Assembly (NCBI GenBank): GCA_963708295.1
Contig: CAVPSJ010000017.1
Span: 448,001-512,000, forward strand
From: an uncultured delta proteobacterium
Lineage (GTDB): Bacteria > Desulfobacterota > BSN033 > UBA1163
DNA: 64,000 nucleotides
Reading direction: 5' to 3'
The notes below the pieces were generated by a model. That model searched no databases, was not told the DNA's origin, and worked only from the letters and a program-made list of their open reading frames with translations. Below are positions 1,594-9,354 of this stretch, one piece after another. Made by a program: the position numbers and the translations under genes. How positions within the stretch are numbered: the first letter of the stretch is position 1; each line of letters opens with the position of its first letter.

Positions 1594-1701
1594 GTGACCT
1601 GCCTCGAACCGGTCAATGATCCAAGCCTTCTCCTGCCCACCCCCGGTTCTTCCTTGCCCGCCATAGGGGTGGATCCCTGAAGAGGTTTTTTATTGATGTA
1701 G

Positions 1702-1730
1702 AAAAGCCCCGTCCAATGGACGAGGCTTTT
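1702..1730. terminator. bidirectional intrinsic terminator between pyk and tRNA-Asp
   Basis: AAAAGCC-C-CGTCCA-A-TGGACG-A-GGCTTTT stem with A/T tracts on both sides, between convergent genes. Confidence 0.7.
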
Positions 1731-1763
1731 AAAGTGACGGGACAATCTTCCCGAGTCTATTTC

Positions 1764-1840
1764 TGGCGGGAGCGACGGGGCTTGAACCCGCAACCTCCGA
1801 CGTGACAGGCCGGCGCTCTAACCAATTGAACTACGCCCCC
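1764..1840 (-). tRNA. tRNA-Asp(GTC)
   Basis: The reverse complement folds as a 77-nt cloverleaf: acceptor GGGGGCG/CGCTCCC, anticodon arm CCGGC-CT-GTC-AC-GTCGG, T-loop GGTTCAAG, discriminator G and encoded CCA. Confidence 0.97.
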
Positions 1841-2126
1841 AAAACTCAACACGATCACTTGCGTCGCCTTCGGCGACATGAATATAAGAATATCAGAAGA
1901 GAAGAGATAAATCAAGATTGAAGTTTTTCTTGCCGCCCCGGTTTTTCCTTGCCCGCCACGAAGTAAGTCCCCTCCGAGGCTTCATCAGGGGAACGTTGAG
2001 GTAAACGGGATCAAAGCCCTCAATGACATTCACCCCACTCTCCCTCCTTGAGGAGGGCTAATTCTCCCCTAATAACTTGGAGAGTCAGGGTTGATTTGAC
2101 TCCCAAAATCGGATAGATTAGCAGGA

Positions 2127-4274
2127 ATGAATAAAGTTGCTTGCCTTTTTTGTCTCCATAATCATCAGCCTGTGGGAAATTTCCTCCACGTCCTTGAGAA
2201 TGCGTATGAAAAAGCCTATCTTCCTTTCATCGAAGTCCTCAAGAAATATCCGTTCATGAAGATCTCCATTCACTATACCGGAGTCCTCTGGGATTTTTTT
2301 AAAGATCGTCACCCGGAATTCATAGAAACTCTAAAGGAGTTGGTCAGAAAAGGACAGTTAGAGATGATGACGGGGGGGTATTATGAGCCGATTCTCGCGG
2401 TCATCCCCGATGCGGATAAAGTTGGGCAGATCAAAAGGCTGACGCAAAAGATTCAGGAAGAAATAGGAGTCACTCCTCAAGGAATGTGGCTGGCAGAAAG
2501 AGTCTGGGAGCCCCAGCTTCCGAAGTATTTAGTAGAAGCGGGTGTGGAGTATATTAGCATCGATGACTATCACTTTAAGAAATCCGGACTGAGGGAAGAG
2601 GATTTACATGGCTATTATCTCACAGAGGAGGATGGAAAGTATCTAAAGGTTTTCCCGGGGAGCGAGACCCTGCGGTACATCATTCCTTTCCATCCACCGG
2701 AAGAAACTCTGGGATACCTCTCACCGCTTCGAGGGTCCTCTCGCGCAGCTATTTTTGCCGATGATGGCGAGAAATTCGGGATCTGGCCTTACACGTACCA
2801 TTCAGTCTATGAAGAGGGTTGGTTAGAGCGTTTCTTCAAATTGATCGGGGAAAATCTGGATTGGATTGAACCCATGTCCCTCGGAGCCTATGCCGATCGC
2901 GAGAAACCTCTCGGAATAATCTATCTCCCCTGTTCCTCTTATATGGAAATGGATGAGTGGAGTCTCCCCACAGAGGCTATGGTGGAATATGGAAAGGTTG
3001 TTGAGAGATTGAAGGGGGGAACCGAGGGGGAGAAGGTCAGGAGATTTATCAAAGGAGGATTCTGGAGAAACTTCTTCGCCAAATATCCTGAATCGAACGA
3101 TCTGCACAAAAGGGTCCTCCATCTTCGAGAAAAGATAGCAAATGCGAAAAAGAGGCCTGCTTCCAAAGACCAGGACCCCCTTCTTTATCTCCATCAAGCC
3201 CAGTGCAACGATGCCTATTGGCATGGGGTGTTCGGAGGCCTCTACCTTCCTCATCTTCGCCATGCCCTTTATGAAAACTTGATCAAGGGAGAAACTCTCC
3301 ATGATCAACAGATGCATCGGGAAAAAGATTGGATCGACCTGGAGAAGCTGGATTTCAACGGAGATGGGGATGAGGAAGTCATTCTAAAGAGTCCGGAGAT
3401 GGTTCTCCTTTTCAGTAGCCGTGGGGGAAGCCTTTTAGAAATGGATGACCGGTCAAAGGCCTTCAATATCCTTGGGACCCTTACTCGAAGGAAAGAGGGC
3501 TATCATCACAACTTATTGGAATCCCGGGAACAAGCGTCGAGGGATGAAGCACCCACAACCAAAACAAAAACCATCCATGAGATTTTTCATTCGAAGGAGG
3601 AGGGTTTAGATCAATATCTCCATTTCGATGGATATCGAAGGGTTTCCTTCTTGGATCATTTCATCGCGGAGCCGATGCATTTTGAATCCTTTCGAAGATG
3701 CCAATATCAAGAGGAAGGGGATTTTATTCAGGAGCCCTACGAGATCAATGTAGGGGAGAAGGGAAAATGGCAGGGAGTCCTTTTCTCTCGATCGGGGGGC
3801 CTTCGCAAGGATGGGGGAAAAGACCCGATGAGGATAGAAAAAAGCTTTTCCCTTTTGCCTGGTCAAAAAACAGTCCAGGCAGCTTACCGAATTACTTTTG
3901 GAGGGGAGAAGAGAAGAACGAACTTCGGCATCGAATTCAATATTAATCTCTTAGCGGGAGACGCACCGGATCGGTACTACAACATACCGGGACATCCGCT
4001 CGAAGATCGAAGACTGGCAAGCATCGGTGAATTGGGGAATGTTTCAGAGATTCAATTGGTTGACGAATGGGTAGGGATGAAGGCCGTCCTGAAGATGGAC
4101 AGAAACTGTAATCTCTGGCGTTTTCCCATAGAGACCGTTTCGCTCTCGGAGAGCGGATTCGAGAGGATTTTCCAGGGTTCATGCCTGCTCCTTTACTGGC
4201 CGTTGGATTTGGAGCCTGGAGGAGAATTTGGGGTCACTATCGAGTTAGGTACTAGGAATATATCATCCCCCTAA
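2127..4274 (+). CDS. glycoside hydrolase family 57 alpha-amylase/4-alpha-glucanotransferase (DUF1925/DUF1926 C-terminus)
   Basis: HNHQP, WLAERVW (nucleophile Glu), DDGEKFG (acid/base Asp), AQCNDAYWHG GH57 motifs. Confidence 0.92.
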   Translation: MNKVACLFCLHNHQPVGNFLHVLENAYEKAYLPFIEVLKKYPFMKISIHYTGVLWDFFKDRHPEFIETLKELVRKGQLEMMTGGYYEPILAVIPDADKVGQIKRLTQKIQEEIGVTPQGMWLAERVWEPQLPKYLVEAGVEYISIDDYHFKKSGLREEDLHGYYLTEEDGKYLKVFPGSETLRYIIPFHPPEETLGYLSPLRGSSRAAIFADDGEKFGIWPYTYHSVYEEGWLERFFKLIGENLDWIEPMSLGAYADREKPLGIIYLPCSSYMEMDEWSLPTEAMVEYGKVVERLKGGTEGEKVRRFIKGGFWRNFFAKYPESNDLHKRVLHLREKIANAKKRPASKDQDPLLYLHQAQCNDAYWHGVFGGLYLPHLRHALYENLIKGETLHDQQMHREKDWIDLEKLDFNGDGDEEVILKSPEMVLLFSSRGGSLLEMDDRSKAFNILGTLTRRKEGYHHNLLESREQASRDEAPTTKTKTIHEIFHSKEEGLDQYLHFDGYRRVSFLDHFIAEPMHFESFRRCQYQEEGDFIQEPYEINVGEKGKWQGVLFSRSGGLRKDGGKDPMRIEKSFSLLPGQKTVQAAYRITFGGEKRRTNFGIEFNINLLAGDAPDRYYNIPGHPLEDRRLASIGELGNVSEIQLVDEWVGMKAVLKMDRNCNLWRFPIETVSLSESGFERIFQGSCLLLYWPLDLEPGGEFGVTIELGTRNISSP

Positions 4275-4337
4275 ATCCCCCTTTAGAAAAAGGGGAAGAT
4301 ACCTCTTCCCTTTAGCAAAGGGGGGTTGGGAGGGATT
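4265..4337. repeat. pyrimidine/purine-arm hairpin element overlapping the GH57 stop codon
   Basis: ATCCCCCTAAATCCCCCTTT...AAAGGGGGGTTGGGAGGGATT inverted arms; contains TAA 4272-4274. Confidence 0.65.
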
Positions 4338-4355: not shown

Positions 4356-4697
4356 ATGGAAAAAAAGGAGAAATCTTTAGAGAAGTTGACCGCTAAGGAG
4401 TTGAGGGAGATGGCTCTCGGATTATCCGGAATCGAGGGCGTCCACGCGATGAAGAAAGAGGAGTTGATTACAGCCATTCGCGCAGCCAAAGGCATCACGG
4501 AGCCGGAGCCGAAGAAAGAGAAAAAGGCATTTGTTAAGAAGGAGAAAGTGGTTCTGACCGTGGCCCAGTTGAAACAGAAGGTGAGGGAACTGAGAGCCAA
4601 GAGAGAGGAACTCACCCAGCAGAAAGATTCAAAGATGGCTGAGATTCTGAGAAGACGGATCAGCCGGCTGAAGAAGAGGACACGGCGAGCGGCCTAA
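4356..4697 (+). CDS. small basic protein with Rho termination factor N-terminal (HeH) domain and K/R-rich C-terminal helix
   Basis: LEKLTAKELREMA...HAMKKEELITAI resembles the Rho_N pattern; AGGAGG RBS; no Rho ATPase domain. Confidence 0.8.
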   Translation: MEKKEKSLEKLTAKELREMALGLSGIEGVHAMKKEELITAIRAAKGITEPEPKKEKKAFVKKEKVVLTVAQLKQKVRELRAKREELTQQKDSKMAEILRRRISRLKKRTRRAA

Positions 4698-4859
4698 CCG
4701 AAAAAATGGAGTGATGGAGTGTTGGAATAATGGAATATTGAGAAGAACCAGGAATAATCTCCGAAACTGCTCGAAATCTATTATTCGATTGTTCCAATAT
4801 CCATTATTGTTTGTTGTTGCCGTTCCATCACTCCAGTACTCCATTCTTCCATTATTCCA
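4698..4859. repeat. 8-nt-periodic (TGGAGTNN/NNACTCCA) fold-back element, copy 1
   Basis: CCGAAAAAA-TGGAGTGA-TGGAGTGT-TGGAATAA-TGGAATAT...CCATCACTCCAGTACTCCATTCTTCCATTATTCCA. Confidence 0.8.
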
Positions 4860-4871
4860 GGGTTGTTGGAT

Positions 4872-5705
4872 ATGCCCAAAGTCTCCGTTATTATCCCCAC
4901 CTACAATCGTCTCCCGATGCTGAAAGAGGCGGTGGATTCAGTCCTGGCTCAAGATTTTGAAGATGTCGAGCTGATCGTTGTCGATGACGGGTCCACCGAT
5001 GGGACGGCAGAGGAAATAAAGCGATACGGAGGAAGAGTCAAGCTGCTTCAACATTCCGTGAACAAAGGGGTGAGCGCTGCCAGAAACAAGGGGATCCTTC
5101 AGTCGAGAGGCAAGTATATCGCCTTTCTGGATTCGGATGATCTTTGGGTGAAGGGAAAACTGAAGATTCAGGTGACATTCCTGGATGACAACCCTCATTA
5201 TCCCCTGTGCTATACCGATGAGATCTGGATTCGAAAGGGGAAGAGAGTTAACCCGATGCTCAAGCATGCGAAATATTCGGGGTGGATCTTTGAAAAGTGC
5301 CTTCCTCTCTGTATCCTCAGCCCCTCTTCCGTCATGATAAAGAGAACACTATTTTCCAAGGTTGGTCTCTTCGATGAAGCCCTTCCGGTGTGCGAGGATT
5401 ATGATTTCTGGCTTAGGATCTCTGCCAGGTTTCCCATCTTCTTTATCAATCGCAAACTCATCATCAAGCGGGGAGGGCATCCTGACCAGCTCTCCCAGAG
5501 ATCGTGGGGAAATGACCGCTACCGGGTGATCGCTCTGGAAAAACTTTTGACGGAACCCTATATTGGATCGGAAGAAAGAGAGATGATTCTTAAGGAGATG
5601 AAGAAAAAATGCTCTGTTCTTTATAAAGGTTTTCTAAAAAGAGGGAACGAGATGGAGGCAAGACGGTATCAGGAAATCATGAACCGATATGGAATAGACA
5701 TATAA
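4872..5705 (+). CDS. glycosyltransferase family 2 (GT-A fold)
   Basis: VSVIIPTYNR, DDGSTD, FLDSDD (DxD), EDYDFWLR motifs. Confidence 0.92.
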   Translation: MPKVSVIIPTYNRLPMLKEAVDSVLAQDFEDVELIVVDDGSTDGTAEEIKRYGGRVKLLQHSVNKGVSAARNKGILQSRGKYIAFLDSDDLWVKGKLKIQVTFLDDNPHYPLCYTDEIWIRKGKRVNPMLKHAKYSGWIFEKCLPLCILSPSSVMIKRTLFSKVGLFDEALPVCEDYDFWLRISARFPIFFINRKLIIKRGGHPDQLSQRSWGNDRYRVIALEKLLTEPYIGSEEREMILKEMKKKCSVLYKGFLKRGNEMEARRYQEIMNRYGIDI

Positions 5706-5712
5706 TCCCTTC

Positions 5713-5857
5713 GAAATGTCAAATGTCAAAGTTCGCACGAAGTGATGAACCGAAGGTGAATCAATTTCAAATGAAGTCCAAAGCTCAAATCTCGAAATTG
5801 CTTCGGATTTGGGATTTGACATTCCTTTGGCATTTGTGTTTTGACAGTTGACATTTC
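5713..5857. repeat. 7-nt-periodic (AAATGTC) fold-back element
   Basis: Left arm GAAATGTCAAATGTCAAA matches the reverse complement of the right arm TTTGACAGTTGACATTTC at 17/18 positions. Confidence 0.8.
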
Positions 5858-5883
5858 TTTTTCGCCTAATGAGATGATTACTT

Positions 5884-6870
5884 ATGAAACCAATTCAAAA
5901 CATACCCCTTCAACAAATTGATTTATCGGATGATACCTTTTCGGTCAATTATTTGCCCGATGTCCAAAAACTTCGATCTTCGATAGAAGAAATGGGATTA
6001 ATCCAGCCTGTGCTTTTGAAGAAGAAGTTGGATGGATACCAGATCGTCTGCGGGTTCAGAAGAATTTCTGTGATGAAGGAACTGGGAAAGTCGGAGATTG
6101 AGTCGAAAGTGTTTGAGGAAGAAGAGAGGGATGAATTCCAGTTTTTTTCTCTCTCCTTGCATGAGAATCTGACGACCCGGGGATTCAATGCCATTGAAAA
6201 GGCCATCGCTCTGGACAAATGGGTTCATCGTTTTCAAATTGATCGCGCCGCGGTCATCAAGACCTTCCTGCCTCTCTTTTCTCTCGAGCCCAATGAAAAG
6301 ATTTTGAACACCTACCTCTCCCTCGCTCGGATGGAGGATGAAATCAAAACGTATGTATTAAAAGAGGAGGTTTCGCGTACCAACATACGAAGACTGTCCA
6401 CTCTGACTCCCGATGATCGAATGGCGGTCCTTTCCCTGATCTCTCCGCTCAAATTGGGTGAGAACCGCTTGAGAGAGGTCCTTACTCTTTTGGAAGAAAT
6501 CTCAAAAAGAAATCAATGTAAAGAAAAGGATATTGTTCAGCGGTCGGAAATACAGGCCGTCCTTTCTCAAAAAGAACTCACCCCCTCTCAGAAAACGGAG
6601 CGTATCAAAAAGGTTTTCACGGACCTCCGCTACCCAAAGTTGAATCAACTGGAGAAAGCGTTTGAGAAAAAAAGAAAAGACTTAAATTTACCTTCCAATA
6701 TCTCGCTTCACCATCCCCCCTTTTTCGAGGGGAAGAGATTGAAGGTCGAATTTCAATTCGAAACGATGGAAGAATACCGGTTCACCGTTTCTTCCCTGTC
6801 GCTCCTTGCTGATAAGAATGAGTTTGGGGAGATGCTTGAGGATAAACACCAAAACACAAGCACCCATTAG
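5884..6870 (+). CDS. ParB/Srx N-terminal domain protein (orphan, no adjacent parA)
   Basis: LRSSIEEMGLIQPV, YQIVCGFRR (GxxR box), HENL motifs of the ParB N-domain; helical C-terminus. Confidence 0.85.
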   Translation: MKPIQNIPLQQIDLSDDTFSVNYLPDVQKLRSSIEEMGLIQPVLLKKKLDGYQIVCGFRRISVMKELGKSEIESKVFEEEERDEFQFFSLSLHENLTTRGFNAIEKAIALDKWVHRFQIDRAAVIKTFLPLFSLEPNEKILNTYLSLARMEDEIKTYVLKEEVSRTNIRRLSTLTPDDRMAVLSLISPLKLGENRLREVLTLLEEISKRNQCKEKDIVQRSEIQAVLSQKELTPSQKTERIKKVFTDLRYPKLNQLEKAFEKKRKDLNLPSNISLHHPPFFEGKRLKVEFQFETMEEYRFTVSSLSLLADKNEFGEMLEDKHQNTSTH

Positions 6871-7018
6871 GATAGAGCATCGTGTCAAAAATAGGTCGAT
6901 AGGGTTGTTAGGCCGTTCCTATGATTAGGTGGGTAGCGCCCCCATTGGATGGAGGCGAATTATGAGAATTCATGAACTTCCGATTTCGATAAACAGCACA
7001 AAGTTTATGGGGGTGACC

Positions 7019-7492
7019 ATGATTGATCGTTTGGCTGTTTTTACCAAGAGCATTGAGGTAAAGAACCCAGGGCCAAAAATACCCACACCTGAGGAGCTGT
7101 CAGGAGAACTAGAATGGAGGTTAGACGGCAGCTTTTCGAGCAGCTTTACGGATCTAGAAGAAGGCACCTACGAAATAGCATTTCACGGGAAGGGATGGAT
7201 AGGGGAAATTCTTGTGCAGAATTTCATCATGTATGGAGTCCTGGAGTTCGACCGTTCTCTTAAGTTCGTCCGTATCAAAGGCTTCCTGTTCAGAAGACAG
7301 ATGGTATCCTTTCTCCTGATAATCTTGGCGTTGGTCGCCCTTCTTTTTGTTTCCGGATTTTCCAATGAGGCAATCGGAATCGTTTTGTTTGTTGCTTTGT
7401 ATTTTCTCGGTATTTATTGGGTTGAGTCTCGGCGTTATTCTAATATCGTAGGGATTGCAGCTCAGCGGTGGGAACAGCGAGGTTCGGCATAG
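7019..7492 (+). CDS. hypothetical membrane protein (2 C-terminal TM helices)
   Basis: ORF with hydrophobic segments FLLIILALVALLFV and IGIVLFVALYFLGIYW; start uncertain (6962/7007/7019). Confidence 0.6.
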   Translation: MIDRLAVFTKSIEVKNPGPKIPTPEELSGELEWRLDGSFSSSFTDLEEGTYEIAFHGKGWIGEILVQNFIMYGVLEFDRSLKFVRIKGFLFRRQMVSFLLIILALVALLFVSGFSNEAIGIVLFVALYFLGIYWVESRRYSNIVGIAAQRWEQRGSA

Positions 7493-7663
7493 AACGATGC
7501 TCTGTTGGGTGGAAACGGGAACGCCAGTTTGTAATGGATCTGGCGACTTACGGTCTCGATCCGAATGGCGACATCTCCGTGACGATCCCCCACTCATTGG
7601 AACCGGAACTTCCCGGCGGTTGAAGTGAAGCGTGGAAGATTTCCCGCAATTTTTCGGAAAGAG

Positions 7664-8773
7664 ATGCTCCTCAATCAGATTGAAAGAATTTATCTCGATG
7701 AAAAGGCTGAAAAAGATTCGGTCTCAGAAACCGTTCTTAAAGCCTTGCCGAATATTCCCGTAGAAACCGTTCAGGATAAGCGGTCTCTCATCAAACATTT
7801 TTCTTCTATGCCCGATTCGATCGGGGTCGGGAAAAAACATCTTCTCATCACTCATTTTTACGGAAGACGGTTGAAGCCCTGCCCAGGGACCTCCAACCAT
7901 ATCTGCTGCGGGTACTATGTCATCAACGCTGTTACCAATTGCCCGATGGACTGCTCTTACTGTGTCCTTCAAGGATATCTGAATAACCCGTTTCTCACCC
8001 TCTATACCAACTGGGATGACCTTCTTGAAGAAATAAATAGCTTCCTTTCGATCGACCGCCATTCCCTCATTCGGTTGGGAACGGGGGAACTCTCCGACAG
8101 CCTGGCCCTGGAATCCATTTTTCCATTCTCGCAGTTCCTCATTCCATTTTTTGCGGAGAGTCATAATGGCATTCTGGAGCTAAAGACGAAATCAGCGAAT
8201 GTCGATCCTGTTCTTAAGATGGACCATCGAGGGAAAACAGTCATCTCCTGGTCGCTCAATTCCCCTAAAACGGTCGAAAGGGAGGAGAGAGGGACTGCTT
8301 CATTGGATGAGAGGATCGCTGCAGCGAGAAAATGCCAGGAGAAGGGTTACCCATTGGGATTTCATTTTGACCCGCTTATCTACTATGAGGGCTGGGAGAA
8401 GGGATATGAGGAAACCATCCATCAACTTTTCAAACAGATCGATCCCAAAAGGGTCGTGTGGATCAGCCTGGGAGGGTTTCGTTACCCGCCTGACCTCAAA
8501 GCCATAGCACAGGAACGTTTTCCAAAAACTGAAGTCTTTCTGGGAGAGTTATTTCCGGGAAGAGATGCCAAGTTCCGATATCTGAGAGAGATTCGAATGG
8601 AGATGTATCAGAAGATGGTAGGATGGTTGAAGGAGGTGGATCCCAATCTTTTTGTTTACCTGTGCATGGAGAGTAAGGAGGTTTGGGACAAAGTTTTTGG
8701 ATGGGCCCCCGAGAACAGTGGTCATTTGAATCGGATGTTTGAAGAGAGGGTGAGGGAGTTTTTAGGAAGATGA
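7664..8773 (+). CDS. splB: spore photoproduct lyase-like radical SAM protein (non-canonical)
   Basis: CPMDCSYC radical SAM motif; SplB-like segments LELKTK, GTASLDERIAAA, GYPLGFHFDP, EGWEKGY. Confidence 0.85.
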   Translation: MLLNQIERIYLDEKAEKDSVSETVLKALPNIPVETVQDKRSLIKHFSSMPDSIGVGKKHLLITHFYGRRLKPCPGTSNHICCGYYVINAVTNCPMDCSYCVLQGYLNNPFLTLYTNWDDLLEEINSFLSIDRHSLIRLGTGELSDSLALESIFPFSQFLIPFFAESHNGILELKTKSANVDPVLKMDHRGKTVISWSLNSPKTVEREERGTASLDERIAAARKCQEKGYPLGFHFDPLIYYEGWEKGYEETIHQLFKQIDPKRVVWISLGGFRYPPDLKAIAQERFPKTEVFLGELFPGRDAKFRYLREIRMEMYQKMVGWLKEVDPNLFVYLCMESKEVWDKVFGWAPENSGHLNRMFEERVREFLGR

Positions 8774-9354
8774 AGGGAAGAAAACAGATTCGATTGAAGG
8801 ATTACGATTATTCAAAAAGCGGGTACTATTTTGTCACGATTTGCACCCGATATAGAGAGGAATGGTTTGGAAAGGTAAAGAGCGGAATAACGCATTTGAG
8901 TAAGTTTGGGGAATTTGCAAAAAATTTCTGGAGTGAGATTCCCGAACATTTTGAGGATGTTGAAATGGATGAGTTTTCGATAATGCCTAACCATGCCCAT
9001 GGTATCTTGATTATTGAAAGAAATATGGTAGGGGACGCATATATGCGTCCCCATCAGGGGAATGCATTTATGCATTCCCTACAAGATAAAACAAAAATGT
9101 TATTGTCCAAGGTAATCCAACAATATAAAGCATCCGTCACACACAAAATCAATAATTTGCAAAATGATTTTCATTTCCAATGGCAGAGATCATTTTATGA
9201 CCATGTCATACGAAATGAGAATGAATTATCCAGAATCAGGCAGTACATCCAAAACAATCCCTTGAAATGGGATTTAGATAGGGAAAACCCATTGTCCAAG
9301 AACTTTGATTTAGAGCATGGCCGTTATTGGAAAGAAATCTATGATTCAATGTAG
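8770..9354 (+). CDS. REP-associated tyrosine transposase (RAYT, IS200/IS605 Y1 HUH superfamily)
   Basis: RLKDYDYS, YFVTICT, MPNHAHGI (HUH), WQRSFYDHVIR, YIQNNP (catalytic Tyr). Confidence 0.92.
   Translation: MKGRKQIRLKDYDYSKSGYYFVTICTRYREEWFGKVKSGITHLSKFGEFAKNFWSEIPEHFEDVEMDEFSIMPNHAHGILIIERNMVGDAYMRPHQGNAFMHSLQDKTKMLLSKVIQQYKASVTHKINNLQNDFHFQWQRSFYDHVIRNENELSRIRQYIQNNPLKWDLDRENPLSKNFDLEHGRYWKEIYDSM
9028..9082. repeat. inverted GTAG-REP doublet inside the RAYT coding sequence
   Basis: GTA(G)+perfect palindrome GGGGACGCATATATGCGTCCCC (9031-9052), then GGGAATGCAT-TT-ATGCATTCCC+TAC (9058-9082). Confidence 0.8.

Follow-up and report, generated by a model that had tools for sequence, protein, structure and literature searches.

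A GT2 glycosyltransferase, a ParB-derived partner and a spore photoproduct lyase-like radical SAM enzyme form a conserved three-gene unit with a possible role in nucleic-acid base modification

Results

Three of four adjacent genes form one unit

The window analysed here is a 64,000-nucleotide stretch from an uncultured delta proteobacterium (GenBank assembly GCA_963708295.1, contig CAVPSJ010000017.1, positions 448,001 to 512,000, forward strand). It carries four co-oriented open reading frames (ORFs), which encode a small basic Rho_N/HeH protein, a GT2 glycosyltransferase, a ParB-derived protein (hereafter the partner) and a radical S-adenosylmethionine (SAM) enzyme resembling spore photoproduct lyase (SPL) (Table 1). 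An earlier note on this DNA had tentatively read the four as one nucleic-acid modification or repair pathway, and all four ORFs were present where it placed them, with the domains that it named and with the GE(L/F)xDS motif of the SPL-like protein (here GELSDS). We found that the GT2, ParB-like and SPL-like genes behave as one unit and that their linkage is not due to chance, because their order is conserved, they co-occur even when unlinked and they occur fused to one another. The Rho_N gene did not track this trio, so that the proposed grouping, and the linkage to SPL-like homologs for which the note had suggested a neighbourhood survey, held for three genes but not for the fourth; that the unit modifies nucleic acids is a matter of interpretation, taken up in the Discussion.

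Profiles of the four proteins were searched in 251 genomes of the phylum. Before counting, 5 of the 154 genomes with an SPL-like match were dropped (best E values only 1e-33 to 1e-45), as were 3 of the 139 with a ParB-like match (N-terminal match only), which left 136 of the 251 genomes for the latter; GT2 orthologs were present in 140 at E<=1e-65. The SPL-like and GT2 genes were found together in 137 genomes and both were missing in 99, with 12 genomes carrying only the SPL-like gene and 3 only GT2. For the SPL-like and ParB-like genes, the corresponding numbers were 134 (both), 100 (neither), 15 (SPL only) and 2 (ParB only), and, when the threshold was lowered, a partner was seen next to the SPL-like gene in at least 6 of these 15 'SPL only' genomes. 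The trio was complete in 122 genomes and wholly missing in 98, and the phi coefficients were 0.88 (SPL-GT2), 0.87 (SPL-ParB) and 0.76 (GT2-ParB), values that overstate independence, and with it significance, because related genomes share genes. This inflation tells against the unit, as does the choice of the E-value cut-offs after the lists had been seen.

The SPL-like and ParB-like genes lay at most 3.5 kb apart in 96 of 134 genomes, and the SPL-like and GT2 genes in 45 of 137; therefore, GT2 tracks the pair even when it is unlinked. All three genes were present, though dispersed, in 8 of 8 genomes of family f29. At the class level, 22 of 30 loci had at least 2.6 kb of upstream sequence, and both GT2 and the ParB-like gene were found in all 22 (Rho_N in 21). 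In a second phylum, to which a Ca. Auribacterota genome belongs, an SPL-like match was present in 19 of 31 genomes and a GT2 match better than 1e-80 in 9, in all 9 within ~2 kb of the SPL-like gene; further homologs are filed under Omnitrophota, Aminicenantes and Chloroflexota names, and Deferrisoma palaeochoriense is an example of a carrier in culture. The trio genes are mostly single-copy and housekeeping-like. In neighbour-cluster maps, no sugar-nucleotide, transport, envelope or repair genes recurred beside them, and no dioxygenase recurred among the annotated neighbour clusters. In two families (loci L171-L176 and L235), the SPL-like gene stands apart from its partners in a separate recurring context comprising an unannotated 341-aa gene, a nitroreductase, an NTPase and a ThiI-like/NFACT-R protein.

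Fusions join the same proteins. Among 120 SPL-like hits, a helical segment of the partner, here called the adaptor, lay N-terminal to the enzyme in all 6 proteins longer than 400 aa and in none of the 114 shorter ones, and three Auribacterota-phylum loci likewise encode an adaptor-SPL fusion. Among 150 GT2 hits, P0340 and P0330 combine GT2 with the adaptor, and P0344 carries GT2, adaptor and SPL-like enzyme in one chain; these hits are predicted proteins without DNA context, and single ones may be artefacts. Apparent SPL fusions of 455-805 aa in GC-rich genomes were mostly spurious upstream frame extensions and were rejected, and a 636-aa ParB-SPL ORF in L226, which lacks SPL residues 1-90 and may result from an assembly deletion, was left out of the counts.

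Rho_N was found in 131 of the 251 genomes, with phi values of 0.25-0.32 to the trio genes. Two families without any trio gene, f16 (7/8) and f18 (7/7), had it, and it was missing from f4 (0/6), a family with the trio; among the 89 genomes having both Rho_N and GT2, the two lay within 3.5 kb of each other in 15, all in families f1 and f14. The Rho_N gene thus neighbours the trio in the present class and in one further family, but is likely not a member of the unit. Its gene adjoins an SPFH/Band 7 gene (an NfeD/SPFH context) in 4 of 12 fetched loci (L291, L296, L297 and L299) and a SAICAR synthetase gene in others.

The radical enzyme keeps the SPL fold and loses lesion-reading features

A structural model of the SPL-like enzyme (pLDDT 87), searched with Foldseek, matched SPL with TM scores of 0.76-0.79 at ~25% identity, with nothing else close, and the SPL fold was complete, including its alpha/beta domain at the N-terminus. 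The radical SAM cysteines (CxxxCxxC) are at 93/97/100. The conservation figures below refer to 95 aligned rows, and the residue roles follow PMC3467042. The SAM-contact residues of SPL (Y96, D143, K174, S195 and R273) are kept, as are the lesion-phosphate binders R273 (95/95) and K309 (as K303, 94/95) and the base contact Y339 (as Y332, 91/95). The position of the hydrogen donor C140 is occupied by E142 in 95/95. R193 is replaced by S or A in 95/95 and E268 by S in 91/95, Y98 is kept in 6/95 and is otherwise mostly I, V or F, and a six-residue deletion removes the tip of the base-flipping beta-hairpin (R304/Y305); because of these changes, binding of double-stranded DNA in the manner of SPL appears doubtful. 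By sequence alignment only, C73 falls at the clostridial donor position (S76C of 4RH0) in 91/95; therefore, loss of C140 is not in itself enough to rule out SPL chemistry.

C73, C82 and C334, together with C81 or C75, are extra cysteines present in 91/95 rows. C75 was found in 6 of the 10 rows lacking C81 versus 1 of the 85 rows having it, and four extra cysteines, with C75 substituting for C81, suggest a second metal site. All four rows without the extra cysteines belong to genomes in which GT2 had no match, and they branch off outside the main clade. Loci L222-L225 (genomes G234, G175, G114 and G078) carry the SPL-like and ParB-like genes and no GT2 match, and their enzyme lacks the N-terminal cysteines. 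Conserved polar residues line the pocket (E142, E172, K174, H234, D236, E295, D301, R305, R311 and E336), and a C-terminal extension is not found in SplB. In a quick tree, which has long branches for P0344 and a Fusobacterium protein, the enzyme forms a clade apart from SplB; Aureimonas and Granulicella homologs fall outside this clade, and the alphaproteobacterial and acidobacterial plasmid homologs that were fetched group with SplB (SH-aLRT 100 and 98). The separate clade, the lost lesion-reading features and a score of 135.6 bits against TIGR04070, the cut-off of which is 400, agree with the description of the enzyme as non-canonical in the earlier note.

The partner conserves a helical half rather than a CTP clamp

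The partner consists of a ParB/Srx nucleotide-binding domain, a helix-turn-helix (HTH) region and a helical and beta/alpha C-terminal half. In its model (pLDDT 90), the N-terminal half matches ParB, Noc and PadC. Box I (GLIQP), the E/D-N box and the HTH region are present, with GFRR where ParB has GERR, and the GxxR phosphate-binding motif (G57 and R60) is conserved in 55/55 rows having the domain. The E93 position holds F, Y, W, R or S in 51 of these 55 rows (4 were not displayed), and the Q52 position is T in the window protein and variable in homologs. In PadC, the counterparts of Q52 and E93, the catalytic residues, are also replaced and hydrolysis is reported to be lost (10.1101/2021.05.05.442810), and the nucleotide preference of ParB-type domains is described as not predictable from sequence (PMC12704722). 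No parA adjoins the partner gene, as had been pointed out before. A canonical parA-parB pair lies ~25 kb off, outside the window, and has the ParA-binding motif LGKGL that is missing from the partner; its parB (G000:C17:427284-427890) lies downstream of both parA and an rsmG-like gene and, in this assembly, is divided between two frames.

Only profile positions ~150-320 of the partner remain in f38, G138, G227 and four metagenome loci, and several lineages, like the fusions, have no N-terminal half. Because the catalytic residues are gone and the N-terminal half is often lost, the conserved core is the C-terminal helical part and not the CTPase clamp, and a CTP-driven clamp is, to judge from these alignments, not the conserved function of the partner. 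The clamp-guided action envisaged by the earlier note thus finds little footing. We infer that the helical half serves as an adaptor for the radical enzyme. It had no structural match beyond generic helical bundles (Z up to 7.7), with residues beyond 252 barely covered.

The glycosyltransferase and a nucleosidase-like family

GT2 did not reach the cut-off of any NCBIfam GT2 family shown; the best score to envelope families of the TuaG, EpsE and WcaA types was 110.6 bits versus a cut-off of 400. In 86 aligned rows, the motifs DSDD, CEDYD and GGHxDQLS were conserved, as were the basic residues R121, K134, K199, R218, K246, K256 and R257, which lie beyond the donor-binding core. GT2 is more conserved than its partners (~90% within the genus and 62% across the class). 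Maps of 80 loci revealed no polysaccharide genes recurring beside it, and the grouping with envelope polysaccharide loci that had been named as an argument against the module was not seen.

In P0321, a GT2 of this subfamily is joined to a nucleosidase-like domain, the family of which has invariant E11, E134 and K155 (52 aligned sequences). Because 5'-deoxyadenosine is reported to inhibit radical SAM enzymes (PMC8102628), we propose that this domain may clear the by-product of a stoichiometric radical reaction. The adaptor and the nucleosidase-like tail gave a profile match on the expected helix that was weak (E 0.088, probability 0.65%); among 123 sequences, 52 forward versus 9 reversed ones had scores above zero, and only P0344 exceeded 5 bits. 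Fusobacterium vincentii (L287:2113-3981, on a 2.1-Mb record filed as a plasmid) encodes a 623-aa fusion of a nucleosidase-like domain with a more distant SPL-family radical SAM domain, followed by a short-chain dehydrogenase/reductase (SDR) gene, and no GT2 was found in this 6.8-kb locus. A different SPL-family clade stands behind an N-terminal domain of ~400 aa in L063:935-3043 and L280:5691-7748; this domain has no Pfam match and contains a methyltransferase-like DAFAGPG motif.

Gene calls and surrounding elements

The spacers preceding the Rho_N, GT2 and ParB-like genes are accounted for by genome-wide repeat families, which bears out the earlier observation that the genes are separated by repeat elements and one membrane ORF. 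This ORF was found in 1 of 60 loci (a partly redundant set) and in none of the 22 class-level loci with enough flank; it is a recent insertion. The start assigned to the SPL-like gene in Table 1 is most likely correct, because homologs begin at this ATG. Promoter and terminator scans gave results near chance level. A gene for a REP-associated tyrosine transposase (8770-9354) overlaps the SPL-like stop codon; it occupies the same spot in some relatives (45-88% identity) and fits the intergenic repeat elements. The SDR, GH57 and transposase neighbours were rejected as unit members, being local to the class and not conserved phylum-wide. Between the pyruvate kinase and GH57 genes, a 23-nt direct repeat (96%) flanks a tRNA-like stretch (window 1641-1958).

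Table 1. Genes and repeat elements at the locus (window coordinates)
Feature	Position	Strand	Basis or remark
REP-like palindromic repeat, genome-wide	4265-4337	none	many copies on other contigs
Rho_N/HeH protein, small, basic, 113 aa	4356-4697	+	PF07498, E 1.2e-5
Inverted repeat element, genome-wide, Rho_N/GT2 spacer	4701-4859	none	repeat-family match
GT2 (GT-A fold) glycosyltransferase, 277 aa; core member	4872-5705	+	PF00535, E 2.5e-37
Inverted repeat element, genome-wide, GT2/ParB-like spacer	5710-5857	none	repeat-family match
ParB-derived partner, 328 aa; core member	5884-6870	+	PF02195, E 1e-6
Helical adaptor segment of the partner, residues ~172-256	6397-6651	+	kept in N-terminally truncated and fused forms
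Membrane-tailed ORF between ParB-like and SPL-like genes	6929-7492	+	not conserved
SPL-like radical SAM enzyme, 369 aa; core member (probable start ATG 7664)	7664-8773	+	PF20903, E 3.6e-37, 128 bits

Discussion

We tentatively favour the interpretation, to which we give somewhat less than an even chance, that the trio is an oxygen-independent pathway combining radical activation with glycosylation of a nucleic-acid base. Retention of the full SPL fold, of the phosphate-binding R273 and K309 equivalents and of the Y339 equivalent suggests a nucleic-acid-like substrate. In this scheme, the radical enzyme, with the helical C-terminal half of the partner as its predicted adaptor, would activate a base, most likely of the thymine or uracil type, in DNA or RNA. 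The 5'-deoxyadenosyl radical would remove a hydrogen from the base itself or from a substituent on it, a second metal centre held by the four extra cysteines would accept the electron, and E142, at the position of SPL Cys140, may help water to capture the product and so leave a hydroxyl handle. GT2 would then add a sugar to this handle, in the manner of base J-type pathways. Radical tailoring might also come second, on a base that already carries its sugar, an order that would be equally compatible with the enlarged pocket. A wider claim would be that anaerobic bacteria of several phyla glycosylate a pyrimidine of their own DNA or RNA by a chromosomal route that needs no oxygen, as a bacterial counterpart of base J, with a two-cluster SPL-derived radical SAM hydroxylase that depends on a ParB-derived adaptor; this we regard as unlikely on present grounds.

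The closest precedent comes from the 5mYOX phage loci, where, according to PMC13229309, thymine dioxygenases require a ParB-like partner whose CTP-binding residues are dispensable, and hypermodification genes are associated. The trio likewise pairs a ParB-like protein with a putative base-acting enzyme, adjacent in 96 of 134 genomes and also fused. Because of this precedent, we prefer the base reading to a small-molecule reading, which would otherwise be slightly favoured. Unlike the phage loci, the trio is chromosomal and uses a radical SAM enzyme in place of an Fe/2-oxoglutarate enzyme; moreover, the phage partner depends on its nucleotide-binding domain and has no HTH, whereas the trio partner often lacks the N-terminal domain and has an HTH region when full-length. 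SplB (Geobacillus thermodenitrificans 4FHC-4FHG, 4K9R and 4RH0; TIGR04070; PF20903) shares with the trio enzyme the fold, CxxxCxxC, the SAM-binding residues, the R273/K309/Y339 equivalents and a Cys at the S76/clostridial position. The trio enzyme differs from SplB in the Glu at C140, the replaced Y98, R193 and E268, the deleted hairpin tip, three further conserved Cys, the C-terminal extension, a dedicated partner and GT2, and its separate clade. The partner, for its part, resembles ParB/Spo0J, Noc and PadC in Box I, GxxR, the E/D-N box and the HTH region, and PadC also in the replaced Q52/E93 equivalents, but lacks the catalytic Q52/E93, the LGKGL motif and an adjacent parA and has a longer helical C-terminal half with no clear structural match. 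By analogy, the trio would operate in the manner of loci for ParB-activated base oxidation and glycosylation, yet outside the SplB, ParABS and 5mYOX families.

Several observations weigh against a base-modifying role. The hairpin tip, R193, E268 and Y98 of SPL are lost, and the HTH is missing from the truncated and fused partners. The nearest solved relatives of GT2 are polysaccharide enzymes, and its isoelectric point (9.26) is ordinary, the 11 GT2 domains of the genome spanning 5.6-10.2; net charge, considered as a sign of a nucleic-acid acceptor, was therefore rejected as not discriminating. No methylase, nuclease or defence genes recurred near the trio in the neighbour-cluster maps, and, unlike known hypermodification loci, no full-length ortholog was found on viral contigs or in phage and plasmid records.

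A somewhat unlikely but substantial alternative is that the three proteins build or tailor a small phosphorylated compound, be it a nucleotide, nucleotide-sugar, cofactor or envelope glycan unit; the radical enzyme would epimerise or oxidise it and GT2 would transfer the sugar, with the ParB remnant being structural. The missing hairpin tip and a pocket rebuilt with conserved polar residues would suit such a substrate, as would C73 at the alternative hydrogen-donor position S76C and the mostly single-copy, housekeeping-like genes. The GT2-nucleosidase-like fusion P0321, and the same nucleosidase family joined to a distant SPL-family domain in Fusobacterium, point the same way. Sets of a radical SAM enzyme, a nucleosidase and a GT2 are known from the hopanoid (HpnH/HpnG/HpnI) and arsenosugar (ArsL/ArsK) pathways, in which a radical SAM enzyme works with a GT2. 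The trio resembles these sets in combining radical SAM and GT2 proteins, sometimes with a nucleosidase-like domain, but its radical enzyme is SPL-like and its GT2 scores 62 versus 182 bits for TIGR04283 and 33 versus 379 for HpnB. However, the small-molecule alternative leaves the DNA-binding ancestry of the partner and the retained SPL architecture unexplained, and the sugar-nucleotide, transport or envelope genes that might accompany it do not recur beside the trio.

The enzyme might also repair some lesion that is not the spore photoproduct, for instance a bulky or cross-linked base that arises in anoxic, sulfidic surroundings; the ParB-like protein would then act as its loader, and GT2 would mark or cap the damage. 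This reading seems to us quite unlikely. The SPL fold, the phosphate-binding residues and the clostridial-type Cys are kept, the pocket is enlarged by the R-to-S and E-to-S changes, and in alpha- and beta-proteobacteria other homologs of splB have been predicted to be SOS genes (PMC3323433); however, the alphaproteobacterial and acidobacterial plasmid homologs group with SplB, outside the trio clade, in the quick tree. A perfect 16-bp palindrome (G000:C18:23790-23805) upstream of one of the two lexA genes, which may not be a LexA box, had no match with up to 2 mismatches near the trio, and genome-wide with fewer than 2 mismatches it matched only itself. Repair genes do not recur nearby, and we know of no role of a glycosyltransferase in direct reversal repair. 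It is very improbable that the enzyme is a plain clostridial-type SPL, with GT2, ParB-like and Rho_N genes beside it by shared descent: although SPL accounts for all of its best matches in sequence and in fold and C73 sits at the clostridial donor position, its TIGR04070 score is far below the cut-off, R193, E268, Y98 and the hairpin are lost in a separate clade, and the genes co-occur when unlinked and form three kinds of fusion.

A literature search of titles and abstract starts, with subscription journals mostly outside its reach, returned no paper describing the trio, and a mention in supplements is possible. In ~60% of the genomes sampled from the phylum, a gene that goes under the label 'spore photoproduct lyase' or 'DNA photolyase' is probably misannotated, and it has two overlooked partners. 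If the base reading is true, radical SAM chemistry would take the place of oxygen-dependent TET/JBP oxidation, and the glycosylated base would be cellular rather than phage. If the substrate is instead a small molecule, the trio would still represent a radical SAM pathway that is both widespread and unassigned, in which the ParB scaffold has been put to a new use.

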